Virus record (IMG/VR): IMGVR_UViG_3300044991_002272
Length of the DNA stretch: 64,000 bases
Source: a virus
Strand: one strand, 5' to 3'
A model generated the notes under the pieces. It had not been told where the DNA came from. It saw only the letters and a program-made list of their open reading frames with translations, and ran no database searches. A program made the position numbers and the translations under genes. Each line of letters begins with the position of its first letter. Position 1 is the stretch's first letter. Shown piece after piece: positions 22,040 to 38,112 of the stretch.

Positions 22040-22615
22040 ATGGTAAATGTCAAAGAAATTGAGAAAAGTTACAGAACGTATTTTGATGGTCCAGGATTTG
22101 TAACCTCAAAAGGCAGTCTCAGAATCAATCCCACCACTGGCAAAATCACTGTTTTGAACAATGTTTTCTTGTGGCGTAGTCCGCCTGATGGAAAATTGCC
22201 AGTGGAATTTGAAGCAGCGAATTTCAGTATGCAAATACAAAACCGCAATTTAACCTCTCTAGAAGGTTGCCCACAGACGGTTAGACAAAATTTTAATTGC
22301 AGAGGCAACAAATTGACCACCTTGCTTGGTGGGCCAAAAAAAGTAGGAGGGACCTACGAGGCTAGCAATAATCCGTTGGAGAACCTTGACGGCCTTGCTA
22401 CTGAAATTGGAAACACCTTATACCTTCCCTACCATCCCCAGTTGCCTTTGTTGAGGGCCTTAGTGGCACCACAAATTGTGTTTGCCAATTTTAGCTTAGA
22501 CCATAAACCCCCTGTTGCTATTATGAAAAAATACGAAGGGCAAGGCAAAAGGGCTTTGTTTGAATGCCAAAAAGAACTGGAAGATGCAGGGTATGAAGGC
22601 AATGCCAGATGGTAA
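22040..22615 (+). CDS. 21-aa-repeat (LRR-like) protein, array 1 copy 1
   Basis: LTSLEGCP..V...F.C..N repeats and C-terminal KYEGQGKRALFECQKELEDAGYEGNARW. Start reassigned to ATG 22040. Confidence 0.85.
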   Translation: MVNVKEIEKSYRTYFDGPGFVTSKGSLRINPTTGKITVLNNVFLWRSPPDGKLPVEFEAANFSMQIQNRNLTSLEGCPQTVRQNFNCRGNKLTTLLGGPKKVGGTYEASNNPLENLDGLATEIGNTLYLPYHPQLPLLRALVAPQIVFANFSLDHKPPVAIMKKYEGQGKRALFECQKELEDAGYEGNARW

Positions 22616-23370
22616 GTCTACGAGAAAGTGTCCTGAAAATATTTCACTATAACTTTGATTTTCATGCCGGGACAAGTCATTCAGGAAAAATAGAGGTGGA
22701 TGATGCAGGCCTAGTCTCAGCATATGGCAACGTGAGTCTCCGGCTCTCTGCAACAATTTTGCCTTGCCGTTTCAAATTGGTTACAGGAGATTTCCTCTGC
22801 TCAAAAAACAACTTAACTAGTCTGTTGGGCAGTCCTCTCGAAGTTATGGGTGATTTTGATGCTCGTGAGAATGAACTTGAGACACTTGAAGGTTTTCCAA
22901 AAACAGTGGGCGGGGTAACTTGGGTCAATCATAACAAGCTGAATAGTTTGAGGGGGGTACCAAACATCTCTCCTGGCGGCAGTTTTTTTTGCTATAAGAA
23001 TCAACTGTCTTCTCTTGAAGGTGCGCCTGAGAGTGTCGATGGTGATTTTCGCTGTGACATCAATAATCTCACCAATCTCAAAGGTGCTCCCACCAAAGTC
23101 TCAGGCTATTTCACTTGCATAGATAACCCACTATCAAGCCTTGATGGTGCGCCACGAGAAATGGCGGGTTTTTGGGGCCCGTATCACAAAAATCTCCCGT
23201 TATTACGAACATTGGTTGCAGATGACATAGCCTTGTATCCTACTTTGAATCAAGATGCTAGAGCTGTGAAAAACATCCTTATGAAATACGCAGGGCAAGG
23301 CAAACGGGCTTTGTTTGATTGCCAAAAAGAACTGGAAGACTCTGGCTATGAAGGAAACGCAAAATGGTAG
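22609..23370 (+). CDS. LRR-like protein, array 1 copy 2
   Basis: Same repeats and C-terminal motif; 7-nt overlap with copy 1. Confidence 0.85.
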   Translation: MVSLRESVLKIFHYNFDFHAGTSHSGKIEVDDAGLVSAYGNVSLRLSATILPCRFKLVTGDFLCSKNNLTSLLGSPLEVMGDFDARENELETLEGFPKTVGGVTWVNHNKLNSLRGVPNISPGGSFFCYKNQLSSLEGAPESVDGDFRCDINNLTNLKGAPTKVSGYFTCIDNPLSSLDGAPREMAGFWGPYHKNLPLLRTLVADDIALYPTLNQDARAVKNILMKYAGQGKRALFDCQKELEDSGYEGNAKW

Positions 23371-23957
23371 ATGAAGAATCTATATTACGTATTTTTGAAC
23401 ACTATTTTGAAAATTCTGAAGACATCATCCAGAGAGGCAGATACAGATTTCTGAAAGAAAACGGTTCTCTTAACATCCTTGGCAATGTTATAAGAAGAAA
23501 TGGCCTGCACATGCCTGACGGCATGTGGCCAGTGAATTTTGGGACTATCCATGGTAATGTGGGTATGAACAACTGTGGATTGACAAGCCTAGAAGGCAGC
23601 CCAGAAGTTGTGCACGGTAGCATGAGCATTGATGACAATCCACTGACCAATCTTGTGGGATTGACCCAACAAATCTCTGGCCAACTCAATATTTCTGGAA
23701 TTAACTTCAAGAGTCTTGAAGGTTTACCTCCAGACCAAAGTGTAGTTGTATCTTGGTATCCAAATATGCCTATGTTGCGACTCCTAACATGCAAATGGAT
23801 CGAGCTGGAATGGTTTCAAATGCGCGATCCAGCTGACTCCCACCCCAAACAAGTGTTGAGTATTTTGAGAAAATATCGCAGATTTGGCAAAAAGGGCATG
23901 TTTGATTGTCAAAAGGACTTGGAAGATGCTGGATTTGAAGGGAATGCTCGATGGTAG
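23364..23957 (+). CDS. LRR-like protein, array 1 copy 3
   Basis: Same repeats and C-terminal motif. Confidence 0.85.
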   Translation: MVDEESILRIFEHYFENSEDIIQRGRYRFLKENGSLNILGNVIRRNGLHMPDGMWPVNFGTIHGNVGMNNCGLTSLEGSPEVVHGSMSIDDNPLTNLVGLTQQISGQLNISGINFKSLEGLPPDQSVVVSWYPNMPMLRLLTCKWIELEWFQMRDPADSHPKQVLSILRKYRRFGKKGMFDCQKDLEDAGFEGNARW

Positions 23958-24505
23958 ACAAAGAAGAGATCTTGAGAGTGTTTCGAAAATACTTTGACCC
24001 TTTTGATCAATATCTCCTATCCAAACAAATGCAAATACGTGATGATGGCACAGTAGATGTGCAGTGGAATGTTTACATGCTTGATGAACTGGCTGAGATA
24101 CCAGTCAAGTTCGGCACAGTGACGGGGGATTTTGTTGCTGAAGAAAAAGGCCTTAAAACCTTACACAACATGCCCAAACTTGTAACTGGCGACTGTGAGT
24201 TGGCTGGTAACAAGCTCACCACACTGATTGGTGCTCCCTTAGAGGTGGGTGGCAATTTTTTTGTAAACCGCAACCCGCTTGTTTCTCTTGACGGCTTTCC
24301 ACAAAAGGTAGGCAAAAGGGTCAGTTTGAAATGGGGGCCATCCCTGCCATTGCTGAGAACTCTAAACGCCCGTGAGGTAGTGCTGTATGGTCAACCTAGG
24401 GTTATGGCAATAATGAACAAATATGCAGGACAAGGCAAACGAGCAATGTTTGATTGTCAAAAAGACTTGGAAGATGCAGGATTTGAAGGCAACGCAAAAT
24501 GGTAG
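23951..24505 (+). CDS. LRR-like protein, array 1 copy 4
   Basis: Same repeats and C-terminal motif. Confidence 0.85.
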   Translation: MVDKEEILRVFRKYFDPFDQYLLSKQMQIRDDGTVDVQWNVYMLDELAEIPVKFGTVTGDFVAEEKGLKTLHNMPKLVTGDCELAGNKLTTLIGAPLEVGGNFFVNRNPLVSLDGFPQKVGKRVSLKWGPSLPLLRTLNAREVVLYGQPRVMAIMNKYAGQGKRAMFDCQKDLEDAGFEGNAKW

Positions 24506-25050
24506 ACAAACAGGAAATTCGAAAGTTGTTCAAACATTGGTTTGATACAGACAGTGCGGAGTTCGAAATAAACGATGATGGTACCATAAGTTGTGAAGGA
24601 TCCATCACCACTGATTACAATTTCCCAGGCAAACTGCCTGTGAAATTCAAAGAATTTAAGGGCACATTGTTCCTCAGGAAAGCTAATCTACACACCCTAG
24701 AAGGGTCACCTGAATACATGGACGGTGATTTGCGCGTGAGCAGAAATCAACTCACCAATCTCAAAGGTGCACCTGAAGTCATCACCGGCGTTTTCAATAT
24801 CATGAAGAACCCTCTCACCAGTCTCGAAGGGTTTCCCAGCAGTGTTGGCACAGTATTTTTAGACGATGATCCAAATTTGCCAATGTTGAGATTGTTGACT
24901 GCCCAAGAAATCAAAATTCAAGGCAGCCGAGATCCCAACTACACTGTATCAAACATTTTGAATAAGTATGCAGGACAAGGAAAACGTGCAATGTTTGATG
25001 CCCAAAAAGAATTGGAAGATGCTGGATTTGAAAAAAATGCTCGCTGGTGA
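24499..25050 (+). CDS. LRR-like protein, array 1 copy 5
   Basis: Same repeats and C-terminal motif. Confidence 0.85.
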   Translation: MVDKQEIRKLFKHWFDTDSAEFEINDDGTISCEGSITTDYNFPGKLPVKFKEFKGTLFLRKANLHTLEGSPEYMDGDLRVSRNQLTNLKGAPEVITGVFNIMKNPLTSLEGFPSSVGTVFLDDDPNLPMLRLLTAQEIKIQGSRDPNYTVSNILNKYAGQGKRAMFDAQKELEDAGFEKNARW

Positions 25051-25113
25051 AGGTTGACGTCTATGATGTTGCACCGCAACATAAATAGACTAGACACAAA
25101 GGGGAGAATAACA

Positions 25114-25269
25114 ATGAACAACGATATCGCACGAAGCGTTACCAATTGGTATGCTACTGTAGCCGCAACTTATATGGACACAGCAGCAAAAATGTATGAA
25201 GCTCATATGAACCTGGTAACAGAAATGAGCAAGGTCAATATCAAAGATATTTGGCCTCAAAAGAAATAA
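25114..25269 (+). CDS. Small hypothetical protein (51 aa, amphipathic)
   Basis: TAAATA at 25082-25087, GGGGAG RBS, terminator directly downstream. Confidence 0.65.
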   Translation: MNNDIARSVTNWYATVAATYMDTAAKMYEAHMNLVTEMSKVNIKDIWPQKK

Positions 25270-25270
25270 G

Positions 25271-25300
25271 CAAAAAGCCCGCGTTAAGCGGGCTTTTTTG
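25271..25300. terminator. Bidirectional intrinsic terminator
   Basis: CAAAAAGCCCGC-GTTAA-GCGGGCTTTTTTG between convergent genes. Confidence 0.85.
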
Positions 25301-25307
25301 TCTATGA

Positions 25308-25499
25308 TTAGCGATCAATTTCAATTGTGTTGTATTGGGTGAACAAAGCTACTACTTCTTGTTCGCTGTTGCAGACAATCTTCGATGTAATCCAATCACT
25401 TTCCTTGTCCCGTCCGGTGATTTCAACCATCCATCCGTTGTCATACCGATAGATGTTGAAGGATTCACCAACCTTCTTCATTGTTCCTAGTTTTGACAT
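25308..25499 (-). CDS. Small conserved hypothetical phage protein
   Basis: MSKLGTMKKVGESFNIYRYDNGWMVEITGRD..., AAGGA RBS. Confidence 0.7.
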   Translation of the reverse strand: MSKLGTMKKVGESFNIYRYDNGWMVEITGRDKESDWITSKIVCNSEQEVVALFTQYNTIEIDR

Positions 25500-25509
25500 G
25501 TTTTTCCTT

Positions 25510-25929
25510 TCATGAATTGGCCATTTTGGCTTGAATTTCCTTAACATGTTTGCAGGCTCGGCCAAAACCGCCCGCCACACACGAGCAGTGCCAACGGCTG
25601 CCGCTCCTAGACACCACATAGGATGCGCCTTTGCTGCCTGTTACCATCCAGCTGGTGTCTTTTTCCTTTTTCACAGGAGCTACAGAAGGCGGCAAGGTTT
25701 CACTGCCATCAGCTCGAACAATCTTGACTACGTGTTCCATTTTGAAACTGCGCACAGGGATTTTTATATCATTACTTGTGATACAAATATGTGGCCCCTC
25801 TAGCCAAGAAAAAGTTGGAACTACAATGCCCTCAAAAATTGAGGTTCGATTAGCAGGCCAACCCTGAACTTTGGTAAGGTCCCGACTTTCAATCCTTACC
25901 CGTTCACCATCAGCCGGCAATCCTGACAT
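25510..25929 (-). CDS. SWIM zinc-finger protein
   Basis: V.GSKG..Y.V.....WHCSC.......CKHV. Start at ATG 25929 below a TTGACA-17-TACGTT promoter. Confidence 0.75.
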   Translation of the reverse strand: MSGLPADGERVRIESRDLTKVQGWPANRTSIFEGIVVPTFSWLEGPHICITSNDIKIPVRSFKMEHVVKIVRADGSETLPPSVAPVKKEKDTSWMVTGSKGASYVVSRSGSRWHCSCVAGGFGRACKHVKEIQAKMANS

Positions 25930-25997
25930 GCTGTTAACCTTCTCTCTATGTGGAGAACGTAGCATTCCTTCCCCAAAGTGTCAACCTAAATATGTGT

Positions 25998-26345
25998 ATG
26001 AAAAGCCACCCCCTAGTTCCTGAAATCACAAATTTTGTCAAATGGGCCAAAAAAGAATTAGATATCCAAACTCCAGTGGTAGTAAGATTACGATCCAGTC
26101 GTATGAAACATGGCATACAAAGCACTTTTGGTGGTTATGATCCCATCAACAGGAAGATTACAGTGTCTGTTGACGGTCGCCACCTATTGGATATTTGTCG
26201 GACTATCGCACATGAACTGGTTCACCAGAAGCAAAGTGAGCTACAAGAGTTAACCAATCAGGATGGTGAAACAGGAAGTGCTATTGAGAACGAAGCCAAT
26301 TCTGTTGCTGGAATATTGATGCGCAATTGGGGAAAGAGTTTTTAA
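25998..26345 (+). CDS. Hypothetical HExxH (zincin-like) protein
   Basis: RTIAHELVH...E..ANSVAG motif; TAAATA at 25987-25992. Confidence 0.7.
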   Translation: MKSHPLVPEITNFVKWAKKELDIQTPVVVRLRSSRMKHGIQSTFGGYDPINRKITVSVDGRHLLDICRTIAHELVHQKQSELQELTNQDGETGSAIENEANSVAGILMRNWGKSF

Positions 26346-26349
26346 AAAC

Positions 26350-26853
26350 TAACTCATATCTACGCAGGTATTGGGACTCAGAACATGCTCTCCCAGCAAA
26401 TATGTGGGAAAACAAAAACAAGACTACTACTATAGGCACCAGTCTCAGATGGTTTTGTTGTGAGTGTGTTAGCACTTGGGGCGGTTGCACGGTACCCTCA
26501 GACATTCCTGTCCACAACCTGTCTCTCTACTAAGTAGATGCAGCGGAAAAAATTGGTTTGAAAACCATAAACAAACCAATTCCGTGATCGATGTTCATGC
26601 ACAAAACAGAGCGATCCTTTGGCAACATGCCTCACATGTTGAAGATAATTTTGGGTCTATGTTCCACTTGACCGTGTATTCCGAGTTCGAACTGGAGAGC
26701 TTCTTTGTGAGGGAACCAGCTGTGCTTCTCGGTCCGGCAGGCAGAGTCTACCGATTTGTTTGCGTTCCTGATGGAGTACCATCCCTTCCGCCAGCGGAGC
26801 CAATTACCGCCATATTGTGTCTGCTGTAGACATTAGTTTGCTACAGCAGACAC
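26350..26853. ncRNA. Candidate large structured non-coding RNA or origin-like region
   Basis: About 500 nt with no credible ORF in an otherwise gene-dense genome, and many inverted repeats. Confidence 0.4.
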
Positions 26854-26949
26854 AAGTGCGTCAACACCAAGTGTCCAAAAACTCTACAATTTTTTGTTAT
26901 AGACAGTTAGCCTTTGGGATTTTCATTATAAGGACTAGTGTGACAAAAT

Positions 26950-27219
26950 TCAGCTGATGGGCAAAGTTTTCTCAACTGGAGGAGCGGGTATTGACTCAGA
27001 TTCCTTGCTGCCCTTCTGACCAGCTAGCCAACCAAGTGCAGTGCTGGCCAAACTCAGCATAGCAGCCATCCAATCACCCGGAGGGCTCATGTCTACACCA
27101 GCTGTTTTGGCTGCCATGATGATGAACCCAATGGCAATGAATGCCAAGACTGTGACACTGCATACTGCTATGCCTGCATAGTCTTTCCAGTTGTTTGGAC
27201 TTTTCTTATTTTGATCCAC
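26950..27219 (-). CDS. Small two-TM membrane protein (holin-like topology)
   Basis: Two hydrophobic helices, GGAG RBS. Confidence 0.6.
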   Translation of the reverse strand: MDQNKKSPNNWKDYAGIAVCSVTVLAFIAIGFIIMAAKTAGVDMSPPGDWMAAMLSLASTALGWLAGQKGSKESESIPAPPVEKTLPIS

Positions 27220-27769
27220 TTACAATCTCCAAAGTTAATCGGTCTGTTTCAGGATATTCAATTACTTGTTGCCCTTCCTTGCATTCATATACCAAAATTC
27301 CACGCAATCGAGCCTTGCCTCCTGGCACAGACTCAAGATCATTTATTTTGATGAGAAACTGGAAATTTTCAAAACCTGTTGAAGTCTTACCAACACTTCG
27401 ATTGGCGCTGGTGGTGATTTGATGAATAAAACCATCACGGTCTATTATGTGTGCATCAAAGCTGCGCAACGGACAATCATCGCGGAATTTTTTCCGGCTG
27501 GCTGCCACTTGAAAACTGCTGTAGCTGTTTGTGGGCGTGATGCCGAAACCTTCTGGATCCCAAATCAACACCGGTTCAGCAGTTTTGAAAAATCTGTCGT
27601 AAATTGTGTGTGCACCCAGCAATATTGTAATTGCCACTGCCGCAAATTGAAATTTAGCCAAATGTTGTTTAATAAAATCGCCTGTCGCCAAATTGTTCCT
27701 ACCACCAAAAAGTTGCCCAGCCCAATGCTGCTGCCAAATAAAAGGCTGTGGCACTTGACAGTGCCACAA
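27206..27769 (-). CDS. Hypothetical membrane-anchored protein (start uncertain)
   Basis: One TM segment and a two-Cys periplasmic domain. Confidence 0.55.
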   Translation of the reverse strand: MWHCQVPQPFIWQQHWAGQLFGGRNNLATGDFIKQHLAKFQFAAVAITILLGAHTIYDRFFKTAEPVLIWDPEGFGITPTNSYSSFQVAASRKKFRDDCPLRSFDAHIIDRDGFIHQITTSANRSVGKTSTGFENFQFLIKINDLESVPGGKARLRGILVYECKEGQQVIEYPETDRLTLEIVSGSK

Positions 27770-27878
27770 ATGTCATGACCCAAATTTTTCTGAAGGCTCT
27801 AATGGTTGCAGCCATTTGGCAAATACCTTAAAAACATAAGGTATTTAAAATATTGTGGGCTTACCAAAACCCGTTAGT

Positions 27879-28379
27879 TTATAGCTCTTGAGCTTTCCAC
27901 CAACGAGCCATACTGCCTTCACCAATCTGATCGCACAGCCGCACAAACTCCCCATTCATCCCCAACAGATGGTCAAAATGTTCAGCCAACAGCATATTTG
28001 GGCAAGGCCTTTCACGATGAGCCAACAGCCAAGCTTCAGCCTCCTCAAGACGGTGTGTGCCGTTGCTTTGGAGCCAGAGTGCCAATCCAGTGGCTGTACT
28101 TCTGCTTACTCCGGCGTAGCAGTGTACTACGACACGAGCATCAAAAGGTAGTGATGCACCGAAATCAATGACTCTCTGGGCATGAGCAAGAGTAGGTGCG
28201 TTGGCACAAGTGGAATTTTCCTCATCTTCCACACGAAGCCAAATCCAATTTTCAGGACTGATCCTGTTGGGCTTGTGGACATCATCACCAGGATCCAAAA
28301 GAGTCACTAGGTGTGTTGCATCCATGCTTCTCACTCGAGCACGCACTTGACTCTTTGCGCAAACCAAAAATTCAGGCAC
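27879..28379 (-). CDS. Protein-tyrosine/dual-specificity phosphatase-like protein
   Basis: VVHCYAGVSRSTA (CX5R), P.PN.L..EH.D..LG. Confidence 0.85.
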   Translation of the reverse strand: MPEFLVCAKSQVRARVRSMDATHLVTLLDPGDDVHKPNRISPENWIWLRVEDEENSTCANAPTLAHAQRVIDFGASLPFDARVVVHCYAGVSRSTATGLALWLQSNGTHRLEEAEAWLLAHRERPCPNMLLAEHFDHLLGMNGEFVRLCDQIGEGSMARWWKAQEL

Positions 28380-28429
28380 TAGGATACTCCTTATTCAGTG
28401 TGCCTCTATAGCACACATGCGCGTGCATG

Positions 28430-28649
28430 TCAAGCTGGATTACACACAAGCTTGCGTGAGGTTTTGAATTTGCTGCAACTGCAATATTTGCAGCCCGCAG
28501 CAGCCCAATCCTCGTAGGGGTCAAAAATGTCTTGCATAGGTGTGCTGGCATTCTGGGTCAGCACACACTCGACTGTCGCCAAAATTTGGGTTGTAGTAGT
28601 ATTTTGTGCGGCTCACACGCCTTTTGAAGTATGCTGGTTCATCGCTCAT
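28430..28649 (-). pseudogene. Small Cys/His-rich protein gene interrupted by a +1 frameshift at CAT-TTT-TGA-C (pseudogene, assembly error or programmed frameshift)
   Basis: Frame 0 gives ...YNPNFGDSRVCADPECQHTYARHF*. The +1 frame continues DPYEDWAAAGCKYCSCSKF... to TGA at 28430. Confidence 0.6.
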
Positions 28650-28682
28650 GTGCGCAGCATATGCGGAAAAAATTGTTCAGTC

Positions 28683-28720
28683 AAGAAGGAAGGCAGCATT
28701 TTTCAATGCTGCCTTCCTTG
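28683..28720. terminator. Long hairpin downstream of dnaK
   Basis: AAGGAAGGCAGCATT-TTTC-AATGCTGCCTTCCTT. Confidence 0.7.
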
Positions 28721-28724
28721 GAGC

Positions 28725-30560
28725 TCAAGAGTTTTGGGTGGGTTCAGCTGAGGTTTCAGCCTGTGTATTTTTGTAGATTTCCTCACCCAGCTTCATGGAG
28801 ATTTCACTAAGTTTTGTAGTTTCTTTCTCAATGATTTCAACATCCTCTCCGTCTAATACATGACGCAACGTAGCTAACTGGGGTTCAGCTTCTGCACGAA
28901 GTGTTTCAGAGATTTTGTCGACATTTTCCTTAAGCACCCGCTCTACTGAAGCGATAACGCCATCAGCATTGTTGCGTGCATCTGCAACGCGCCGACGCTC
29001 CTGGTCCGCTGCTTCGTTTTCTTCAGCTTGACGGATCATTTCTAAAATCTCAGCCTCTGACAGTCCACCGTTTGCTTGGATGGAGATTTGTTGAGTTTTG
29101 CCAGTGCCCTTGTCTTGTGCACTGACAGTGACAATGCCATTCGCATCAATATCAAATGCTACGGCGATCTGGGGGCCGCCGCGCGGTGCTGGTGGAATGT
29201 CTTTGAGGTCAAATTGACCTAGCGATTTATTATCTCGCGCCATACTTCTCTCACCTTGGAACACTTTGATAGTAACTGCCTGCTGGTTGTCTTCAGCAGT
29301 ACTGAAAACTTGTTCCTTTTTGGTTGGGATCGTGGTGTTCTTTTCGATGAGTTTGGTGAACACACCTCCCATTGTCTCAATTCCTAGGCTAAGTGGAGTC
29401 ACATCCAGCAGCAGCACATCCTTCACATCACCTTGCAGAACACCAGCCTGCACAGCCGCACCAATAGCCACAGCCTCATCTGGATTTACAGAGTGGTTGG
29501 GCTCCTTGCCAAAGAAGTCTCGGATGGCTTGGCGCACTGCTGGAATACGTGTGGTGCCACCAACGAGGATAATCTCTTTTATCTCATTTTTGTTGATTGA
29601 TGCATCCTTAAGTGCCGCCTGGCACGGGGCTATGATGCGCTTCACAAGATCAGAGGTCAGCTCTTCGAACTTTGCACGAGAGAGCTTCACCAACAGATGT
29701 TTGGGACCAGAAGAGTCAGCTGTGATATAAGGCAAGTTGACTTCAGTTTCACTAGTGCTGCTGAGTTCAATCTTTGCACGCTCTGCGGCTTCACGCAAAC
29801 GTTGCACAGCCATTTTGTCCTTCCGGAGATCTAGCCCTTGGTCACGCAAGAACTCTTGAGCAAGATAGTCTGTTACTCGGGCATCAAAATCCGCACCACC
29901 AAGATGTGTATCACCATTGGTGCTGAGCACCTCTACAACACCACTACCAATATCTAGTACACTGACGTCATGTGTGCCACCGCCTGAATCCACAACAATT
30001 ACCTTGCCATCACCACCTTTGTCAGTGCTGAAAGCTAGAGCTGCTGCTGTGGGTTCATTTATGATACGCATCACTTCAAGTCCAGCAATGCGGCCAGCAT
30101 CTTTTGTTGCCTGTCGTTGTGCATCATCAAAATATGCAGGTACTGTCAGAACAGCTTGGGAGACTTTTTTCCCCAGATAGGTTTCTGCCGTTTCTTTCAT
30201 CTTCAACAGCACCTGAGCGCCAATCTCAGCTGGACTGCGAGCCTGACCTCGGGTTTCTACCCATGCATCGCCATTGTCAGCCTTGACAATTTTGTAAGGT
30301 AGTGTTTTCATATCTGCTGCGACTGATGGATCCGCAAAGCGCCGACCAATCAGGCGCTTGCTTTCAAAAACTGTGTTTTCGGGATTTGTAACAGCCTGTC
30401 GTTTGGCAGCTTGTCCAACCAGTTGTTCCTTGTCAGTCCAAGCCACAATGCTGGGGGTTGTGCGTGCACCTTCTGCGTTTTCAATTACGCGAGCTGTGCC
30501 ATTTTCCATAATGGCCACGCATGAATTCGTAGTTCCAAGATCTATCGCAATGATAGTCAT
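28725..30560 (-). CDS. dnaK: Chaperone DnaK (Hsp70)
   Basis: [60 protein letters not shown] motifs. Confidence 0.97.
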
Positions 30561-30566
30561 TTTGTT

Positions 30567-30631: not shown

Positions 30632-31477
30632 TTATTCGTCTTTGGATGCAACAGGATTGATAATATTGTTCAAACTTACCCAGTCATTCAAGTTGTTCTG
30701 CATGATCTCAAAATATTCTTGGGCTATTTCAGTTCCAACAAAATGTCGCCCCAGTTTCAATGCCTCTACACCAGTTGTTCCACTGCCTGCAAATGGGTCC
30801 AAGATTACATCTCCTGGATTGCTCCAACTGATGATATGATCATGGGCCATAGCTGTGGGCATTTTGGCTGGATGAGAAATGCTCTTGCATGGCCGTTCTT
30901 GCCCTGCTGTTTTCATGCGCCAAATATTGCCTCGCATACCAAACTCTGAGTAGTCCTTTCTCGACCCCCTGTCTTGCATGAGACCATCCTTGTTACGCAC
31001 TGTGTTCTTACCAAATGTTGCCATGCGTGCATGATCAGGATTATTTAATGCTGTAGTAGGTTTGTCTTTGATGGGATTGAAGGTTTTGGGTTTTCCAAGG
31101 CTGAACACAAACATCCACTCTGCCAATTGGTGGTACCGGTTGCTGCTGGGATTGCTGAAGTTGGCTTTTTCGTAAACCATGGTATCGTGCAGTCGCCAAC
31201 CACTGTCTATGAATTTCAAAGCTTGTCGAAAGCTTGTGCCAGTTTCACTGCCATTCACAACTTGATCAGCCACATTCCACATGACAATACCACCAGGCTT
31301 TGTTACTCTTTTGAGTTCCTTCAACAACTCATCAAAATCCCAAGTGTGGCCTTTGTAGTCTCGGAGGCTGTCGTAAGGAGGACTAGTGACAGTGAGATCA
31401 ATGCTGGCGTCAAGAACATGCTGTTTCAGCATGCCAACATTATCACCTTGATAAATGCTGTAAGGCAAGGTGCTCAA
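30632..31477 (-). CDS. Beta-class amino (N4-C/N6-A) DNA methyltransferase
   Basis: TVTSPPY catalytic motif N-terminal to HPAKMP and VILDPFAGSGTT SAM-binding motif. Confidence 0.9.
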   Translation of the reverse strand: MSTLPYSIYQGDNVGMLKQHVLDASIDLTVTSPPYDSLRDYKGHTWDFDELLKELKRVTKPGGIVMWNVADQVVNGSETGTSFRQALKFIDSGWRLHDTMVYEKANFSNPSSNRYHQLAEWMFVFSLGKPKTFNPIKDKPTTALNNPDHARMATFGKNTVRNKDGLMQDRGSRKDYSEFGMRGNIWRMKTAGQERPCKSISHPAKMPTAMAHDHIISWSNPGDVILDPFAGSGTTGVEALKLGRHFVGTEIAQEYFEIMQNNLNDWVSLNNIINPVASKDE

Positions 31478-32883
31478 GAGTTGTGTCCTACAGCCGCAGC
31501 TACATTATCATAGCGTGGATTGTTCAGCGTTTCCAGCATCACAGTCAACGGCGAAAACTCCTCGCATTTCAAAATGCTTTTCAAGATGCTTGGAGAGAAT
31601 CCACTTACCAAAGCAGCCCCTGTGCTGTGTGCCCTTACGGGAAAATTTCCTGCGCGAGCATTCAGGTTCCACCAAACAATTTTTGGAGTTGAGTAGCCGT
31701 GACGTTGGAAAGTTTCTTGAGCAATGTTCCAAGCCATTTGGTTTGCATCGCTTGAGGAGTCAAACTCTTGATCACTCAGCACCAGCACCACCTTGGGCAT
31801 TTCACTGTTGGGCACATTACCCATCACAGCTACACGCAAGATCTCACGGAAAGCTCGTTCAATGCTGGTGTTCATGCCCCAATGCAGTGTGCTGATTTGG
31901 CGCACCTTCTCCGTCAAGCTGCCTTGCAGTCGCTCAATTCGACTATCACCTGAAAAGGTCAACAGCAAGTCTTTGAAAGCGCCCTGTTGTTTGTCACTTA
32001 CATAGAGCCCCAAACTCAAGGCCACCTCCATACAGGAGAGTTTGGAGTTGCCGCCAACAGCACTACTCATGCTACCAGAGGTGTCAACCATTGGAAGGAT
32101 GTTGTCCTCACCCAACAGATTTGGTAGGCTGTCCCATTGAGCTTGCGCAACTTCTGCATCGCCATTACGCATGCTCTTCAACACATCGTAGGGAAAGAGA
32201 ACGGAGCTGTTCACACGGGCAACACCAGTTTTCAAACCCTCTTTCCAAAGGTTGTAGCGTGCTGGATCATTTTTCAAAAAAGCCTTTTGATAGCGAGCAC
32301 TGGCTACAGAAGGCAATTGGCTATAGTGAATGTTGTGCCATTGTCGCGCACACATCTGTTGTTCCACTGTGTGACATTGGTTAACCACTAACTGGCGATA
32401 TTCTTTGGGAGTTTTGATTCCCAAGAGTTTGCGCAAGCGATTGGCTAGTTGTCCTTGGCGCGGGGCATATTTGGCTGCTAGTGCCTTGCCTTTGTGCAGC
32501 TCATCAGCATAATATGCTAGTGCAACCTGTTGCACTAGTGGATGAGCAATACTGAGTAAGTCGTCATATCTACCAAACTCAGGGATCAATGTGAGCAAGC
32601 GAATTGCCAGCTCTGGATCCTTCTCACACAGTTGGTTGAACAATTTCCGGAAAATATCGCGTTCACCAGCACCACCGCGTGCATCACGTGCCCAAAACAG
32701 GGTTTTCACTGTCAGCAGTGTATCACAACTGAATGCAGCAGAAAATTGAGTAGACAGATTTTTGCCTCGACTGCTGCCGATGACAGCAAAGAGATCCAAT
32801 ACAGGATTGTTGGTTGTTGCATTGGTGGGCATGCCATTGGCTGTTTCTGAGTGGGTGAGATCAACGGCTGCTGCAAAGCTCAT
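31474..32883 (-). CDS. DUF2828-type TROVE-like/vWA protein (Ro60-like architecture)
   Basis: FWARDARGGAGER..FR, IPEFGRYDDL, AAKYAPR, YQKAFLKND, vWA MVDTSGSM, LSDQEFD, WNL. Start reassigned to ATG 32883 (GAGGA RBS). Confidence 0.85.
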   Translation of the reverse strand: MSFAAAVDLTHSETANGMPTNATTNNPVLDLFAVIGSSRGKNLSTQFSAAFSCDTLLTVKTLFWARDARGGAGERDIFRKLFNQLCEKDPELAIRLLTLIPEFGRYDDLLSIAHPLVQQVALAYYADELHKGKALAAKYAPRQGQLANRLRKLLGIKTPKEYRQLVVNQCHTVEQQMCARQWHNIHYSQLPSVASARYQKAFLKNDPARYNLWKEGLKTGVARVNSSVLFPYDVLKSMRNGDAEVAQAQWDSLPNLLGEDNILPMVDTSGSMSSAVGGNSKLSCMEVALSLGLYVSDKQQGAFKDLLLTFSGDSRIERLQGSLTEKVRQISTLHWGMNTSIERAFREILRVAVMGNVPNSEMPKVVLVLSDQEFDSSSDANQMAWNIAQETFQRHGYSTPKIVWWNLNARAGNFPVRAHSTGAALVSGFSPSILKSILKCEEFSPLTVMLETLNNPRYDNVAAAVGHNS

Positions 32884-32913
32884 GCAAAATTTCCTCATGC
32901 ATATGTGTAGTGA

Positions 32914-32942
32914 ACTATACCCTGTAAACAGGGTTGTGTCAA
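32914..32942 (-). promoter_or_regulatory. Sigma70 promoter of the DUF2828 gene with a palindromic spacer
   Basis: TTGACA-CAACCCTGTTTACAGGG-TATAGT (17-bp spacer containing CCCTGT/ACAGGG). Confidence 0.8.
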
Positions 32943-33208
32943 AAATGTCGCAGCTTGATTTCAGCAATCAATTCTTGGAAACTGTCATCTTTCAAATCAA
33001 GAGGAAAGCCTTGCAGTCGGTTATTGTAGATTGGCAGCGTGTATCTAGTGTTCTCTACTTCAAAAAAGATTACAAACTTGTCATTTACTACGTCTTGAGC
33101 TATATCAATGTTCTGAGCCGAGACTTCTGCAATGATCTCGTAGATCAAGGGGCTTAACCAACGATATGTTTGATAGCTGATGTATTGTGCATTTATTTGA
33201 GTAGTCAC
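32939..33208 (-). CDS. Hypothetical protein (89 aa)
   Basis: GTG start with AAGGAG RBS lying inside the 3' stem of RNA unit 3. Confidence 0.65.
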   Translation of the reverse strand: MTTQINAQYISYQTYRWLSPLIYEIIAEVSAQNIDIAQDVVNDKFVIFFEVENTRYTLPIYNNRLQGFPLDLKDDSFQELIAEIKLRHF

Positions 33209-33415
33209 AGGATCTCCTTTGTATCACACATGATGCGATTTTAAGTTTGCGGAAGAGATCCTTTGTGGTGGGCACGGATTTGGATGTGGAATTGAACCAC
33301 TGGTTTTGATAAACAAAACGTTATCCAAAGGTTTGCTGAACCAAATCCTCAAGCCCGTAAACAGAATGCTGTTTTTGCACTTTTCCAATTGCATAAACTT
33401 TGCTGTAAGCATTCT
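33209..33415 (-). ncRNA. Array of three stem-closed RNA units with a shared C(A/C)GCAAA core; unit 2 is tRNA-like
   Basis: Terminal stems AGAATGCT/AGCATTCT (33415-33363), GGATTTGG/CCAAATCC (33348-33276) and AGGATCTC/GAGATCCT (33262-33209). Unit 2 has the T-arm GTGG-TTCAATT-CCAC. Confidence 0.65.
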
Positions 33416-33423
33416 TCCTTTTA

Positions 33424-33452
33424 AGGATATATGACAAATAGTGTTGTGTCAA
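33424..33452 (-). promoter_or_regulatory. Sigma70 promoter directly upstream of the RNA-unit array
   Basis: TTGACA-17-TATCCT; predicted +1 falls just before unit 1. Confidence 0.7.
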
Positions 33453-34273
33453 ATAGCAATTTCAATTTCCACTGGAGTCCAACCAAGGTTTTCACCAGGA
33501 TAGCCTCGAGCGTTGTTGATGTAGCGAACACCAGTCAGCACCCGGTCCTGACGATCATGCGTGTGACCAAAGCACCAAGCCCGAATGTTTGAGTTGGTGA
33601 TGGGTTCCAAGAGTGTGTTTGCATAACTGCCATTTAGCATAACCCACTTGGGGTTTGGATTATACTTCAGCAGTGCTCGATTTGGTGCATGATGCGTCAG
33701 TACCACCACTGGGTGTGCTGAGTTGGTTACAGTGTTTTGGATATACTCAGCATCCGCTTTTGCAGAGTCTACAATTGCTTGCACCTTGTATTCTGTTCCC
33801 CACTGGATATAGCGAGCATCATTCATGTAATGTAGGTAAGCTGAGGATTGCTGCTCAAAGTCAAATGGGCTACCAGCTTGGAAATCATGCCAACCAGTAG
33901 CACCCACAAACTTCACACCGTTGACCACAACACTACCTCGATGCAGAAATGAGACATTATGTGCTTTGTTGTATCGGCTGTAGTGGTCGTAGATTTCCTC
34001 AACAGTGCGCGGATAGGGATACTGAGCGTCAAACTCTGGGTCACTCAGTCGAGTGGAATGAAATCCTAGGTTATAGAAGTCGTGATTTCCAGCCACCCAA
34101 ATTACATGTTCAAATCGCTGACCAGCTTCACGCAGCCACCGGCTTCCAGCGCGAACATCATTTTCAATGTCGCCACACACCACAAGTGGAGTGGCAGAGT
34201 CAACCTCGTCAAGAAGCTGCCAATCCCACCCACTGTGGTCAATGTGAATGTCAGAGATGAGGGCAAATTTCAT
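33449..34273 (-). CDS. Calcineurin-like metallophosphoesterase
   Basis: SDIH, CGDI, VAGNHDFY, THHAP, FGHTH motifs. Confidence 0.9.
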   Translation of the reverse strand: MKFALISDIHIDHSGWDWQLLDEVDSATPLVVCGDIENDVRAGSRWLREAGQRFEHVIWVAGNHDFYNLGFHSTRLSDPEFDAQYPYPRTVEEIYDHYSRYNKAHNVSFLHRGSVVVNGVKFVGATGWHDFQAGSPFDFEQQSSAYLHYMNDARYIQWGTEYKVQAIVDSAKADAEYIQNTVTNSAHPVVVLTHHAPNRALLKYNPNPKWVMLNGSYANTLLEPITNSNIRAWCFGHTHDRQDRVLTGVRYINNARGYPGENLGWTPVEIEIAI

Positions 34274-34297
34274 AAGAATATCTTTCCAAAGAAGAAG

Positions 34298-34510
34298 CAG
34301 GTCACAAACTCAAGATCAAACAGAGACTCTAACAAAGAACAAACGACAACCAACAAACTGCAAAACACAATCCCAATATAGCAGCACAACAAAAAACAAA
34401 TGGCGCCTGTGAGGCTTACCGAAAACGTGCTGAGCAATGGGTTTAGCCCTGGAGGATGTTATCCATCCTGTCAATGATAATGTCTTGTTTTTTCCTTCAC
34501 TTGTGACCTG
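34298..34510 (-). ncRNA. Candidate structured RNA closed by a 10-bp terminal stem and containing a UUG heptad tract
   Basis: CAGGTCACAA (34510-34501) pairs with TTGTGACCTG (34307-34298). Internal GGATG/CATCC hairpin; (TTGN4)x6 at 34370-34329. Confidence 0.5.
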
Positions 34511-34530
34511 ATTGTGCAGGCTTTGTGGGC

Positions 34531-35100
34531 CTACACAATACCTAGAGACTCAAGCCATGTCCAGTCTTGGTCTCGAATATTGATTTCAGTAGAGATGTTA
34601 GCAGTCATAAGCTCTTCACCAATAGCTGTCTGCCTGCGACGCAGTGTGACCAGCTGTGTGTTGAACTTCTCAATGTCGGTAAGGCTGAACACACCAACAG
34701 AAAAGCTTTCGGTGATTCGGTAAGAGCTTTTCTCATTGGCAACCGAGATGCTTTTGGCACGCTCTGCCAGGTGTGTGCTGCTGGGAACAGGAGTGCTCTT
34801 CACCAGCCGGGAGAACCGCGAAATCTGAGCAGCTACTACAGCCTGCTCACATAGCAGTTTACTAACACTGCACTTTACATTGGCTGCACCCACTTGCTCT
34901 CGGATGTTTGCGAGTGTTGACTCAAGACGATCAATCTCATCAATTGCACGCATTTGCGCACCACGAGCAATTGCCAGCATCTCATCATTTACTGACCAAA
35001 GTTCCATAGTTAGTTCGCCAGTAAGCTGTGATTGACGCTCACTGATAGCAGCTCGAATGCTGTTTTGCACAGCAGCAGCCTTGCGCAGATTCAATTTCAT
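34531..35100 (-). CDS. Conserved hypothetical coiled-coil phage protein
   Basis: MKLNLRKAAAVQ..I...; start at ATG 35100 below a TTGACG-17-TAGAAT promoter. Confidence 0.75.
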   Translation of the reverse strand: MKLNLRKAAAVQNSIRAAISERQSQLTGELTMELWSVNDEMLAIARGAQMRAIDEIDRLESTLANIREQVGAANVKCSVSKLLCEQAVVAAQISRFSRLVKSTPVPSSTHLAERAKSISVANEKSSYRITESFSVGVFSLTDIEKFNTQLVTLRRRQTAIGEELMTANISTEINIRDQDWTWLESLGIV

Positions 35101-35168
35101 CTCGTTGTCCCTATCAGCGTTTTGTTGTAGCAAATTCTAGCTGAGGGCAGAGGTTACGTCAAACCCTT

Positions 35169-35321
35169 TCAAATAGGCATGTGAATTTTTTGATGACGTT
35201 GAGTTTCAACCCTTTTCAATCGGCACTCAAAGTCAACAACATCAACAGCTTCACTCAGATAGCGTTCCTCATTGGTCATGCAATAATGGTGCCACCATTG
35301 ACGAATTTTTTCCAAAAACAT
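35169..35321 (-). CDS. Small DUF3563-like protein (50 aa), absent from the ORF track
   Basis: MFLEKIRQWWHHYCMTNEERYLSEAVDVVDFECRLKRVETQRHQKIHMPI; CAGGAG RBS; TAAATA at 35343-35348. Confidence 0.65.
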   Translation of the reverse strand: MFLEKIRQWWHHYCMTNEERYLSEAVDVVDFECRLKRVETQRHQKIHMPI

Positions 35322-35373
35322 AATAGTTCTCCTGTTTTTGGCTATTTAACAGGAAATTGTTGCAGTGCACAAA

Positions 35374-36078
35374 TTACCATCTTGCATTTCCTTCAAATCC
35401 TGCATCTTCCAATTCTTTTTGGCAATCAAACATTGCTCGTTTGCCTTGTCCCAAGAATGGTTTCATTATGTTTATGACTTCAGTAGCTTTGCTGGGAAAC
35501 TCAATACTGGCGAGACTAAGGTTATTTGCCACCAATGTACGCAAGAGAGGCATGTCTTCGCGCCAATCGAGGGCTACATGAGACACATCCACAGGAAAGC
35601 CCTCTAGTGAGCGTAGATTTGGATTTCGTATAGCCACCATTATTCCATCTACTTTTTTGGGCCCGCCGATGAAATTTGTGATATTTGTGTCCAAAAGCAA
35701 AAACTCTCCGCGGATATGAACAGGCGCGCCTTGCAGGGTGCGTAGTGGGTTGTCTGAGCAGACATATGCCCCAAAAACTTCAGTAGGGCCACCTTCAAGT
35801 GAAGTGAGCTTGTTATCCTGACACTTAAAACTGCCTTCCACTGTATAAGGACAGCCTACTAAACTTTTCAAGTTACTATTACTCACATTGAAGTGTCGCC
35901 GCACATAACCAAACTTCACCGGCAGTGTTGAAGTGAGTTTGCCGTCAAATGTGCGAAAGTTTTTGTTCAACGCATCTACACCGGTAGCCGAGACTTGACC
36001 CTCGTCATCAATATCAACTGGACCAGAAAAGGCAAAATTGATTTTCAGGAGGTCCCATATGTCAGCTTCAGTTACCAA
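35374..36078 (-). CDS. LRR-like protein, array 2 copy 4
   Basis: 21-aa repeats and C-terminal GQGKRAMFDCQKELEDAGFEGNARW; TTG start in the junction. Confidence 0.85.
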   Translation of the reverse strand: MVTEADIWDLLKINFAFSGPVDIDDEGQVSATGVDALNKNFRTFDGKLTSTLPVKFGYVRRHFNVSNSNLKSLVGCPYTVEGSFKCQDNKLTSLEGGPTEVFGAYVCSDNPLRTLQGAPVHIRGEFLLLDTNITNFIGGPKKVDGIMVAIRNPNLRSLEGFPVDVSHVALDWREDMPLLRTLVANNLSLASIEFPSKATEVINIMKPFLGQGKRAMFDCQKELEDAGFEGNARW

Positions 36079-36752
36079 TGTGCGTTCCCTTCAAATCCAG
36101 CGTCCTCTAGATCCTTTTGGCATTCAAACAAGTATCGTATGCCGTTTCCTGCGTATTTGTTTAGAATTTGTTTGACTGTCCAAACGTCAAGATTATCAGG
36201 ATAAAATTCAATTTTTTTGGCCATTAGTGTGCGAAGCAAAGGCAGCCGGTTTTTGTATGTGATGTGTACAGTGTCGCCAACCTCAGGAAACCCCTCAAGT
36301 GACCGGAGCTTGGTATTACTGTAGCACCAAAAATCGCTGCCAACAGAGGCAGGTGCCCCCAGTAGTGATGACAACAGTGGGTTCTGTGAGCAATAGAAGG
36401 TGCTAAGAACTTCAACAGGTCCTCCCTCAAGTGATTTTAGGAGCTGGTTCTTTCGACAGCGAAACCCTGTGACTTTTTGTGGGGCGCCAGCTAGTGATGT
36501 GAGTTTAGTGTTGTCGCACCAGAAATCACCGCCAATCACTTGGGGTGCACCTTCAAGAGATATCAATTTTTCGTTGTTTCTGCAAAAGAAATCTCCAGCT
36601 ACATCACCAAACCGCACAGGCAATCTCGCCGTATCGTGTGTTAGCTCCACATGCCCATTACAAGAGACCAGTCCGTGATCGTCAATGGTTATCTCACCAG
36701 TTGTTTTAAAATATTTTTTCAACAACTCCATTATTTCATTCTTGTCTACCAC
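36072..36752 (-). CDS. LRR-like protein, array 2 copy 3
   Basis: Same family; GTG start in the junction. Confidence 0.85.
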   Translation of the reverse strand: MVDKNEIMELLKKYFKTTGEITIDDHGLVSCNGHVELTHDTARLPVRFGDVAGDFFCRNNEKLISLEGAPQVIGGDFWCDNTKLTSLAGAPQKVTGFRCRKNQLLKSLEGGPVEVLSTFYCSQNPLLSSLLGAPASVGSDFWCYSNTKLRSLEGFPEVGDTVHITYKNRLPLLRTLMAKKIEFYPDNLDVWTVKQILNKYAGNGIRYLFECQKDLEDAGFEGNAHW

Positions 36753-37480
36753 CTTGCATTTCCTTCAAATCCAGCATCTTCCAGTTCTTTTTGGCAATCA
36801 AACATTGCTCGTTTGCCTTGTCCTGCATAGAGGTTTAAAATTGTTTCAATTGTTTTGTCCTCTCGGTAGGGATAGAATTGAACCTTTTTTGCCAGCAAAC
36901 AACGAAGCAGTGGCAAAGTGGAGCTATAGGAGAGATGTAAGATTCCAGGTATGGTTGGCAAGCCTTCAAGTGTGGTGAGCTGCTGGTTGATGTGGCAGAA
37001 GAAATCACCACCAACTGAAGTGGGTGCACCTTCAAGTGTGGTGAGCTGGTTGTTGTAGCAGAAGAAATTACCACCAACTGAAGTGGGTGCACCTTCAAGT
37101 GTGGTGAGCTGGTTGTTGTCGCACCAGAAACTACCACCAACTGAAGTGGGTGCACCTTCAAGTGTGGTGAGCTGCTGGTTGCTGCACGAGAAATCACCAC
37201 CAACTGAAGTGGGTGCACCTTCAAGTGTGGTGAGCTGGTTGTTGTAGCAGAAGAAATTACCACCAACTGAAGTGGGTGCACCTTCAAGTGTGGTGAGCTG
37301 GTTGATATGGCAGAAGAAATCACCACCAACCTTATCAAAAGCAACAGGCAATCTCTTCAACTTCTTTTTTAGATTTACCATACCTGTACAACTAACCAAT
37401 CCCTTATCATCAATGGTTATTGAACCAGTTGTTTTGAAATTAGCTTTCAACAAAGCCATTATTTCTTTTTTGTCTACCAT
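36746..37480 (-). CDS. LRR-like protein, array 2 copy 2 (near-perfect DNA repeats)
   Basis: Six LTTLEGAPTSVGGxFxCxxNQ-type units. Confidence 0.88.
   Translation of the reverse strand: MVDKKEIMALLKANFKTTGSITIDDKGLVSCTGMVNLKKKLKRLPVAFDKVGGDFFCHINQLTTLEGAPTSVGGNFFCYNNQLTTLEGAPTSVGGDFSCSNQQLTTLEGAPTSVGGSFWCDNNQLTTLEGAPTSVGGNFFCYNNQLTTLEGAPTSVGGDFFCHINQQLTTLEGLPTIPGILHLSYSSTLPLLRCLLAKKVQFYPYREDKTIETILNLYAGQGKRAMFDCQKELEDAGFEGNARW
37007..37300 (-). repeat. In-frame 63-bp tandem repeat: five identical 42-bp blocks separated by 21-bp variable segments
   Basis: ACCACCAACTGAAGTGGGTGCACCTTCAAGTGTGGTGAGCTG starts at 37007, 37070, 37133, 37196 and 37259. Confidence 0.95.
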
Positions 37481-38112
37481 TTTGCATTCCCTTCAAATCC
37501 AGCATCTTCCAAGTCCTTTTGACAATCAAACAAACCCTTTTTGCCTTTGCCAGCATATTTGTTCAATATCTTGGCTACCTGGTAAGCCTTCTCGAAAGTG
37601 TCACCTGTGTTTGAGAACCCAACTTCCTTAGCAACCAAAGTTCTCAACAAAGGCAAACTATTGTGCCATGTTAAGTCAACACTTGTTCCAACGTGGTTAG
37701 GAAACCCTTGTAAGGAGGTTAACCAGTTACCATGGCAGCTGAGTCTGCCTGGAATTTCAGTAGGCAGGCCTGTTAAATCACTCAAACGATTATAAGAGCA
37801 ATTGTATTCGCCGCCTACAATCTTTGTTGGTCCATGTTCAAGAGACTCTAGTTCGTTACCAGAGCAATAAAAGGACCCGCACTCTTGTGGCGCACCTAAG
37901 AGAGATTCAAGCCCCATGCTGGCAAAGCCGCAGACGCCTGTGACTTTTTTGAAACGCACAGGTAGCTGGGGAAAGGATTGCCCTACTCCCCAAGCTACAA
38001 TATCACCGTCAACAACTATCTCATTACTGGGACTCAAGGAGATTTTGGTTGTGCTAGGCACATCAAAATTTTTGTAGACCCAACTCTCTACTTGTTCTTT
38101 TGTGTCCAGCAT
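37474..38112 (-). CDS. LRR-like protein, array 2 copy 1
   Basis: Same family; ATG 38112 overlaps the TGA of the vWA gene (TGATG). Confidence 0.82.
   Translation of the reverse strand: MLDTKEQVESWVYKNFDVPSTTKISLSPSNEIVVDGDIVAWGVGQSFPQLPVRFKKVTGVCGFASMGLESLLGAPQECGSFYCSGNELESLEHGPTKIVGGEYNCSYNRLSDLTGLPTEIPGRLSCHGNWLTSLQGFPNHVGTSVDLTWHNSLPLLRTLVAKEVGFSNTGDTFEKAYQVAKILNKYAGKGKKGLFDCQKDLEDAGFEGNAKW

Follow-up and report, generated by a model that had tools for sequence, protein, structure and literature searches.

Leucine-rich repeat proteins of uncultured large phages in coupled, putatively swappable cassette arrays

The subject of our analysis was a stretch of viral DNA of 64,000 nucleotides (IMG/VR virus record IMGVR_UViG_3300044991_002272; the whole of it is called the window below), in which nine paralogous genes for leucine-rich repeat (LRR) proteins lie in two arrays, five genes on the + strand and four on the - strand. 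The probable explanation for these genes, in our judgment, is that they belong to a phage-restricted LRR family organized as arrays of coupled, swappable cassettes and that they form a fast-turning repertoire varying on the predicted concave face of the repeats. The argument depends on the way the C-terminal codons of each gene serve the translation of the next one, on the exchange of cassettes between related phages and on the location of the variable residues in the repeats.

The original prediction listed nine paralogs with divergent N-termini and a conserved C-terminus, and all nine were found where it placed them. In the following list the + array is p1 to p5 and the - array, in order of transcription, is m1 to m4; L019 is a locus from a more distant relative and L036 is another locus used for comparison.

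22040-22615, + strand: p1, 191 amino acids (aa), 3 clear LRR units, tail ...GYEGNARW; the ortholog L019p4 is 74% identical
22609-23370, + strand: p2, 253 aa, 6 LRR units; without an ortholog in the L019 relative
23364-23957, + strand: p3, 197 aa, 3 LRR units; L019p6 is 59% and L036p3 57% identical
23951-24505, + strand: p4, 184 aa, 3 LRR units; the copy used for the AlphaFold2 model
24499-25050, + strand: p5, 183 aa, the terminal copy of the + array, tail ...FEKNARW
37474-38112, - strand: m1, 212 aa, 4 LRR units, the first copy of the - array
36746-37480, - strand: m2, 244 aa, 6 LRR units
36072-36752, - strand: m3, 226 aa, 5 LRR units, GTG start
35374-36078, - strand: m4, 234 aa, 5 LRR units, TTG start, the terminal copy of the - array

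The overall identity of the copies to p1 is 34-44% and their last 28 residues are nearly invariant. Comparisons of copy with copy using hidden Markov models (HMMs) gave E-values of 1e-67 to 1e-113, so the resemblance is paralogy and not chance. The N-termini turned out to be less divergent than had been claimed, as the heads of the proteins share the consensus MVDKxEI...F.

The claim that the copies are built from LRR-like 21-residue repeats was confirmed by structure modeling, which predicts that the proteins are LRR solenoids. The AlphaFold2 model of p4, calculated from 46 family sequences, has a mean predicted local distance difference test (pLDDT) score of 94.9 and a predicted template modeling (pTM) score of 0.90; it shows short strands spaced every 21 residues and a helical C-terminal part. 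Across 155 distinct repeats, the repeat conserves L1, L4, G6, P8, V11, F15, C17 and N20, and each copy has 3-6 clear units. The best matches of the model in VIA-align were all LRR proteins (U2A', SDS22, internalins, IpaH, InlJ and YopM), with Z scores of 7-8.4, a range that the tool flags as common among unrelated repeat proteins. The leading Foldseek matches in the PDB, as well as many of the matches in the viral library, were also LRR proteins. Profile searches were less informative: none of the nine copies matched a Pfam model, and searches of Pfam, PHROGs, PADLOC and NCBIfam yielded nothing informative for the LRR proteins. What they did return was a weak phrog_21719 match, precomputed PF12799 (LRR_4) matches on some homologs and on 17% of one Atlas cluster and, for one copy, weak matches to the LRR parts of SspH2 (31.7 bits, cutoff 1243) and InlJ (25.5 bits, cutoff 1700). 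On reading the sequences, no signal peptide was visible in the N-termini (MVDK...), and no cell-wall anchor was seen.

A search with the tail pattern did not find the family in 185,579 prokaryote genomes, and there was no tail match among 50,697 GenBank phage records. The matches obtained in Vibrio phage and huge-phage proteins span the repeats only, and the clusters found in the protein atlas are all viral and unnamed. No description of the family was found in the literature searched. The family is confined to uncultured phages, whose genomes measure roughly 400 kb, and it carries no annotation.

The feature that sets these arrays apart is the junction between successive genes. Seven of the nine starts, that is, all of those within the arrays, have the form (A/G/T)TGG-TA(A/G) with a 7-nt overlap, so that the Trp and stop codons of the upstream gene share their bases with the start (ATG, GTG or TTG) and the following GTA (Val) codon of the downstream one. 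GAAGG, a Shine-Dalgarno (SD) sequence, is located 9 nt upstream of the start at these junctions, and the coupled starts are ATG except in m3 (GTG) and m4 (TTG). By sequence criteria (start-stop overlap and an SD inside the upstream gene), the genes qualify as translationally coupled. The claim that the tail supplies both the GAAGG and the next start was borne out at these seven junctions and in the relatives described below. Coupling by this device holds within the arrays but not for m1, whose ATG at 38112 overlaps the TGA of an upstream 769-aa gene (TGATG); the same TGATG junction was found in the relative L038. At the other end of the + array, p5 finishes in ...FEKNARW, so that the GAAGG is gone and CGC-TGG-TGA offers no start codon.

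The conservation of the tail in DNA exceeds what its protein sequence would require. Among the nine copies the DNA identity is 78% in the tail and 46% in the rest, and we compared the frequency with which the same amino acid is encoded by the same codon with the frequency expected from codon usage. In the tail the values are 65% observed and 45% expected, in the first 28 columns 61% and 43%, and in the middle of the genes 34% and 32%. Because the synonymous codon identity of the tail is 0.65 against an expected 0.45, its DNA conservation is greater than protein constraint predicts, which was the check suggested for this point by the original prediction.

A broader view of the junctions was provided by 52 loci of relatives, collected in one scan of viral contigs and one scan of metagenome contigs. 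The junction set is non-redundant and comprises the subfamily ending in Trp, and its junction and terminal-copy counts are not phylogenetically independent. The overlapped start was present at 81/81 internal junctions, and SD-like runs of at least 4 nt were present at 65 of 78 internal junctions of the relatives. The two residues preceding N-A-x-W vary (EG, EE, SE, PE, GE, AE, LE, ED and others), and their codons retain AAGG, GAGG or GGAG. A Glu at the first of these positions is written GAA when it stands before a GG codon (27:4) and GAG elsewhere (25:2; Fisher p = 7e-10); the two exceptions to this rule are a GAA-AGG, which still forms AAGG, and the terminal copy p5 of the window. A Glu at the second position is GAG in 39 of 48 cases, compared with 28% GAG elsewhere in the same genes. 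The base preceding TGG is never C internally, whereas four of the 10 non-redundant array-terminal copies have a C there, which makes CTG and leaves no start (p ~8e-5 by a hypergeometric estimate, the four CTG cases representing perhaps three independent events). These patterns show that selection at the nucleotide level keeps the SD and the next start within the tail. The terminal copies tend to lose the SD (FEK, FDK, FDR) yet retain the protein tail, which argues that, coupling apart, the tail is also under selection as protein. A distant subfamily has a C-terminal Leu and a TTATGA junction with an ATGA overlap, apparently a second solution to the same design.

The ends of the arrays contain three further elements:

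21935..21940, + strand: TAAATA promoter-like motif, ~100 nt upstream of the + array
21950..22046, + strand: degenerate remnant of a cassette tail, which aligns with all nine tails in the DNA alignment
25272..25298, both strands: terminator-like hairpin with an 11-bp perfect G+C-rich stem and A5/T5 flanks, ~220 nt past p5

The remnant has two frame-breaking indels and retains GAAGG and ATGGTAA, which provide the ribosome-binding site (RBS) and start of p1. The stretch around the TAAATA at 21935 (TGTCAACCCAAACCTAAATATTGCA) is also kept upstream of the orthologous array in L019, and we treat it only as a lead to a promoter-like element. Lying between the + array and the genes convergent with it, the hairpin could terminate transcription from either side. 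Scans for promoters and terminators inside the arrays gave counts at chance level.

Related phages differ in the cassettes they carry. A near-identical strain, represented by a 71-kb viral contig, has 98-100% DNA identity to the window over p1-p4 and both flanks, and only 33-64% identity over the body of p5 (24520-24952). The exchange has its breakpoints at 24519, ~20 nt inside the head, and at 24953, where the tail starts. In p5's place the strain has a 196-aa family member with 46% identity to it, and the resident tail end ...FDAQKELEDAGFEKNARW is retained. In the - array of the same strain, a block of 99.3% identity begins at 35451, where the tail of m4 starts, and an m2-like cassette lies upstream of it. 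A third array, with at least nine copies, is present in this strain ~51 kb away. In the L019 relative, with flanking proteins 60-97% identical, there are 11 copies at the orthologous + locus compared with 5 in the window; orthologs of p1, p4, p3 and p5 are present in a changed order and p2 has none. The same relative carries 4 more copies, one of them p3-like, after its AAA+ and DUF2201_N genes, and other phages have arrays of 7 to 10 copies. The proposal that copy number and content would vary among relatives was therefore upheld, with content differing even between strains that are 98-100% identical. These comparisons, together with the tail remnant upstream of p1 and the tail-only ORF of L013 described below, show that the units behave as cassettes that are swapped, gained and lost between relatives.

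Two observations on other contigs touch on the cassettes. At L013:7794-7949 (+) there is a 51-aa open reading frame (ORF) made of ~20 residues and the family tail (...ALFACQKELEDSGVGLHARW); it is joined to an upstream 117-aa gene by an overlap with its stop (TAATG), enters the first LRR cassette through ATGGTAA and looks like a tail-only leader. The 71,398-bp IMG/VR contig G005 is classed as having inverted terminal repeats, and both of its ends break in m2-like cassettes of opposed arrays; the repeats are most likely an assembly break at repeated cassettes and not a genome terminus. Concerted evolution or gene conversion was considered as a cause of the DNA conservation of the tails and found unsupported, as tail identity is equal within genomes (0.755) and across genomes (0.749).

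The variability of the proteins is concentrated at particular positions of the repeat. Entropy over the 155 distinct repeats peaks at positions 14, 16, 18 and 19 (3.2-3.6 bits), which alternate with the core residues F15 and C17 and correspond to x3, x5, x7 and x8 of LxxLxLxxN. In known LRR proteins these four positions form the concave face. The most variable positions of the repeat are thus the four that are predicted to lie on the concave face. One gene shows the pattern in its DNA:

36963..37330, - strand: tandem 63-bp repeat within m2, 5.8 copies

Five of these units share an identical 39-nt scaffold, and the differences are found in a few codons of G-x-F-x-C-x-x-N and are mostly amino-acid-changing. 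Between the window and the near-identical strain, the ratio of nonsynonymous to synonymous changes is 22:14 in p1-p4 and 14:42 in twelve flanking genes. Synonymous sites are saturated among the paralog gene bodies, and the distant orthologs are 56-75% identical.

From this evidence we propose the following mechanism. Each protein would be small and cytoplasmic and would consist of an N-terminal cap, 3-6 clear 21-residue repeats with a core Cys and a C-terminal helical subdomain of ~55 residues. The arrays would be expressed as polycistronic units, in which the last codons encode AAGG, GAGG or GGAG and the next start, so that a terminating ribosome could re-initiate on the following cassette. 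The conserved tail and head would act as homology arms through which recombination swaps, deletes or adds LRR bodies. The outcome would be a fast-turning repertoire with its diversity on the predicted binding face. The targets are presumably host or competitor proteins, bound in the service of take-over or counter-defence, and the C-terminal subdomain, being constant, may have a shared function beyond capping the solenoid. The functional reading that we infer to be the best is a diversifying repertoire of intracellular binders with such a role.

Several points weigh against this proposal. The ratio of nonsynonymous to synonymous changes implies relaxed or locally diversifying selection and not a dN/dS >1. 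Ongoing homogenization is not shown, because the tails are no more alike within than across genomes. The lack of phylogenetic independence noted above applies to the junction and terminal-copy counts, the extra codon conservation of the tail outside the SD and start is without explanation, and ordinary helix capping could account for the invariant D, G and N of the tail. In the original prediction the arrays were an expandable repertoire of variable binders on a common docking tag. Cassette turnover, coupling and the variable concave positions speak for the repertoire, and the ~28-aa C-terminus is strongly conserved in protein and DNA; docking and the functions named there (anti-defence binders, protease adaptors, packaged proteins) are hypothetical.

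The alternative that survives best is that the C-terminal block is only a structural C-cap overlaid by translation signals, the proteins being variable binders with no common partner on the tail. We consider this possible, though on balance not the probable account. In the full p4 model the tail comprises ~55 C-terminal residues, with pLDDT values of 95-98 over residues 130-184, that fold into a short helix, a strand and a pair of helices, and it is predicted to be rigid with the LRR (pTM 0.90). Proteins consisting of LRRs and a cap, such as U2A', align through model residue 174, and the terminal residue, Trp or Leu, is hydrophobic in both subfamilies. A search of 1.84 billion representative proteins with a tail-only profile gave 869 clusters at 50% identity. 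With the exception of three long repeat proteins, the 150 best matches have the tail at the extreme C-terminus of proteins of at most ~310 residues, and an LRR body is present in 112 of the 118 listed tail matches that are at least 150 residues long. Since the tail is nearly always C-terminal on LRR bodies and almost never on other folds, it is an integral subdomain of the family, and the idea that it is a mobile tag fused to many folds was rejected. The tail may therefore be mainly a family-specific C-terminal cap, as the models suggest.

The evidence on the other side is that the conservation is far above the apparent need of a cap, with 28 near-invariant residues, many of them charged, on bodies that are 34-44% identical. 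The core QKxLxDxG...NA persists in both the Trp-type and the Leu-type subfamily. When modeled alone, the tail is predicted to be an autonomous helical unit (pLDDT 85.7), for which no sequence relative was found among solved structures (best E 0.36) and no fold match in Foldseek (E >=6) or VIA (Z <=2.7). Two proteins, P0162 and P0241, have the tail joined to a non-LRR N-terminal part. Conservation as strong as this speaks for a surface function common to the copies. A purely structural role had been named in the original prediction as the case that would speak against it; the folded and rigid tail agrees with that case and capping may be the main role, but the DNA conservation beyond protein constraint does not. 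The three long repeat proteins excepted above, P0121 (1640 aa), P0122 (2149 aa) and P0257 (1329 aa), contain 10-21 tandem units of ~55 residues with the pattern ...F..KY.P.K...VD.IL..Y.GKE..L...L..KYG... and match profile positions 8-37 only; they are probably an unrelated helical-hairpin repeat.

A second alternative is that the proteins are substrate adaptors, in which the LRR face picks a target and the tail docks on a pair of proteins encoded next to the - array, one with two AAA+ domains and the other with HExxH and DxSxS motifs, or on the ClpXP of the phage, in analogy to F-box/LRR receptors or SspB. The genes concerned, together with related machinery, are:

38112..40421, - strand: DUF2201_N gene, 769 aa (Pfam PF13203, E 1.4e-6, above the cutoff), coupled to m1
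40440..43166, - strand: double-AAA+ protein, 908 aa (Pfam AAA and AAA_5), upstream in the gene string of the - array
16957-18207, - strand: full ClpX, 525 bits against a cutoff of 359
9354-11021, - strand: IteA-like or protease-like AAA+ protein
28725-30560, - strand: DnaK-like protein, 611 aa, from the ORF list
L006:6316-6882, - strand: ClpP gene beside the third LRR array of the near-identical strain

DUF2201_N is a putative metallopeptidase domain, and the translation of the 769-aa gene contains HExxH (MHEYMH) and DxSxS (DTSGS) motifs. The - array is the coupled end of the double-AAA+/DUF2201_N gene string, and both the string and its TGATG junction are kept in one relative (L038; amino acid identity of 75% for AAA+ and 70% for DUF2201_N). 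This arrangement, the full ClpX encoded by the phage and the ClpP gene adjoining the third array favor an adaptor role. The + array and the arrays of L013, L026 and L029, in contrast, adjoin unrelated genes, the neighbors of other arrays including ClpP, Pol III alpha, Sir2, a methyltransferase and a cell-wall hydrolase, and the tail is folded rather than a flexible docking peptide. A MoxR-type AAA+/vWA partner system with the LRR proteins as a component would call for conserved linkage to these genes, which was seen in the window and in one relative. The AAA+ and DUF2201_N genes were not found in the other related contigs, which are 17-62% complete fragments, so this absence is uninformative. 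We regard the adaptor role as attractive but unlikely, and the stronger form of it, in which the tail is a universal docking module for an ATP-dependent machine of the phage (the pair described above or ClpXP), as quite doubtful. If that form were true, the arrays would be reprogrammable substrate receptors, a phage counterpart of F-box/LRR targeting, and new specificities would arise by swaps of LRR bodies between invariant, self-translating junctions. It can be observed separately that the phage has much protein-quality-control machinery (ClpX, the AAA+ protein and the DnaK-like protein, with ClpP in the near-identical strain).

The least probable alternative, that the proteins are virion-associated adhesins or decoration proteins whose tail anchors them on the particle while the LRR binds cell-surface or environmental ligands, can appeal to the virion structural genes at 54400-59236 of the window, to the TAAATA motifs upstream of both LRR gene strings and to the fact that a constant anchor with a variable binder is a common layout of phage receptor-binding proteins, but the arrays have dnaK, methyltransferase, phosphatase and replication genes around them and are outside the structural module, the proteins are small and match no known anchor domain, and TAAATA does not mark late genes because it also precedes the dnaK and ribonucleotide reductase genes.

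The window is part of a large phage genome that encodes a T4-type topoisomerase II, ribonucleotide reductase and virion proteins. The topoisomerase shares ~53% identity with the enzymes of Agrobacterium phage Atu_ph07 and Sinorhizobium phage Phosso. The related viral contigs are 71-181 kb long and rated 17-62% complete, and the 71-kb and 181-kb contigs imply a genome of ~400 kb. TAAATA occurs at 26 sites in the window (for example 7122, 12973, 21935, 30623, 43426 and 52671) and is not over-represented, as 23 are expected. Most of the sites compared with the ORF list are 10-100 nt upstream of an ORF start in the correct orientation, including dnaK, ribonucleotide reductase and both LRR strings; the motif has the appearance of a T4-late-type element that the phage uses as a general promoter.

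Several small proteins encoded near the arrays are recorded here as side observations. At 27879-28379 (-) of the window, a 166-aa protein carries an HCxxGxxRS motif (VVHCYAGVSRST) and resembles a dual-specificity or tyrosine phosphatase; L013 and L018 have weak homologs of it (24-29% identity) upstream of LRR arrays. A conserved protein of ~105-110 aa, without a family match, follows the last LRR cassette in two phages (L006:5983-6315 (+) and L026:14517-14834 (+)), and its start in L006 lies in the TTGGTAA junction that ends the last cassette. In two phages (L013:7453-7806 (+) and L029:8294-8647 (+)) the gene directly before the LRR array encodes a conserved 117-aa protein whose N-terminus is hydrophobic and signal-peptide-like.

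If the proposed organization is correct, it would give a virus a compact way to maintain a large and fast-changing set of binders whose modules can be swapped without loss of expression. The swaps at the strain level and the variability of the concave face point to a role in an arms race. Should the targets be proteins of host defence or physiology, the family would offer a wealth of natural binders, and its locus would be a marker for the evolution of host range. The codon co-variation that preserves the SD within the coding tail is a clean natural example of a dual coding constraint.

The closest resemblances among known proteins are to the LRR domains of InlJ, IpaH and SspH, which like this family have repeats of 20-21 residues and a Cys in the core strand (F-x-C-x-x-N), as reflected in the weak SspH2 and InlJ profile matches. 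InlJ (3bz5), IpaH and internalins were among the structural matches of the p4 model, and the core Cys recalls the "cysteine ladder" of InlJ, which we take as resemblance and not as membership. The match to the InlJ internalins, at 25.5 bits against a cutoff of 1700, is confined to the LRR part and does not place the family among them. Pfam, NCBIfam and structure searches indicate that, in contrast to IpaH and SspH, the family is without the NEL ligase domain of ~300 residues, only ~55 residues following the LRR. This helical C-terminal subdomain is without a counterpart in InlJ, IpaH and SspH, and the family is found in phages only. With U2A' and SDS22, which have a C-terminal cap, the likeness extends to the whole model including the tail (U2A', Z 8.3 over 139 residues with a root-mean-square deviation of 4.2; SDS22, Z 8.2), which agrees with a capping role, at least in part, for the tail. 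The sequence identity to them is ~10%, the Z scores are common for unrelated repeat proteins, and the arrays and embedded signals are without parallel there.

The arrays themselves can be compared with other modular loci. In the orphan toxin arrays of contact-dependent inhibition (CDI) and Rhs systems (VENN junction) and in pilS silent cassettes, a variable module is bordered by a conserved block that doubles as a homology arm. The breakpoints found here in the conserved head and tail suggest an analogous arrangement, with the difference that all of the cassettes are complete translated genes and not silent or orphan ones, and that toxin-immunity logic plays no part. The LRR, ankyrin and F-box families of giant viruses and the gene 'accordions' of poxviruses are tandem arrays of paralogs with binder repeats, whose copy number shifts between close relatives. 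The units described here differ from these in carrying the RBS and start of the next unit, in being chained up to 11 times and in having a prokaryotic host. Repeat-protein multigene families of large viruses are among the subjects of a published study (PMC5753266). Viral LRR multigene families and overlapped coupled genes are known. What is unusual is that one conserved coding end is at the same time a fold element, an RBS with a start and a recombination arm, chained up to 11 times, and we take the comparative sequence evidence as proof of selection on each of these three roles of the tail.

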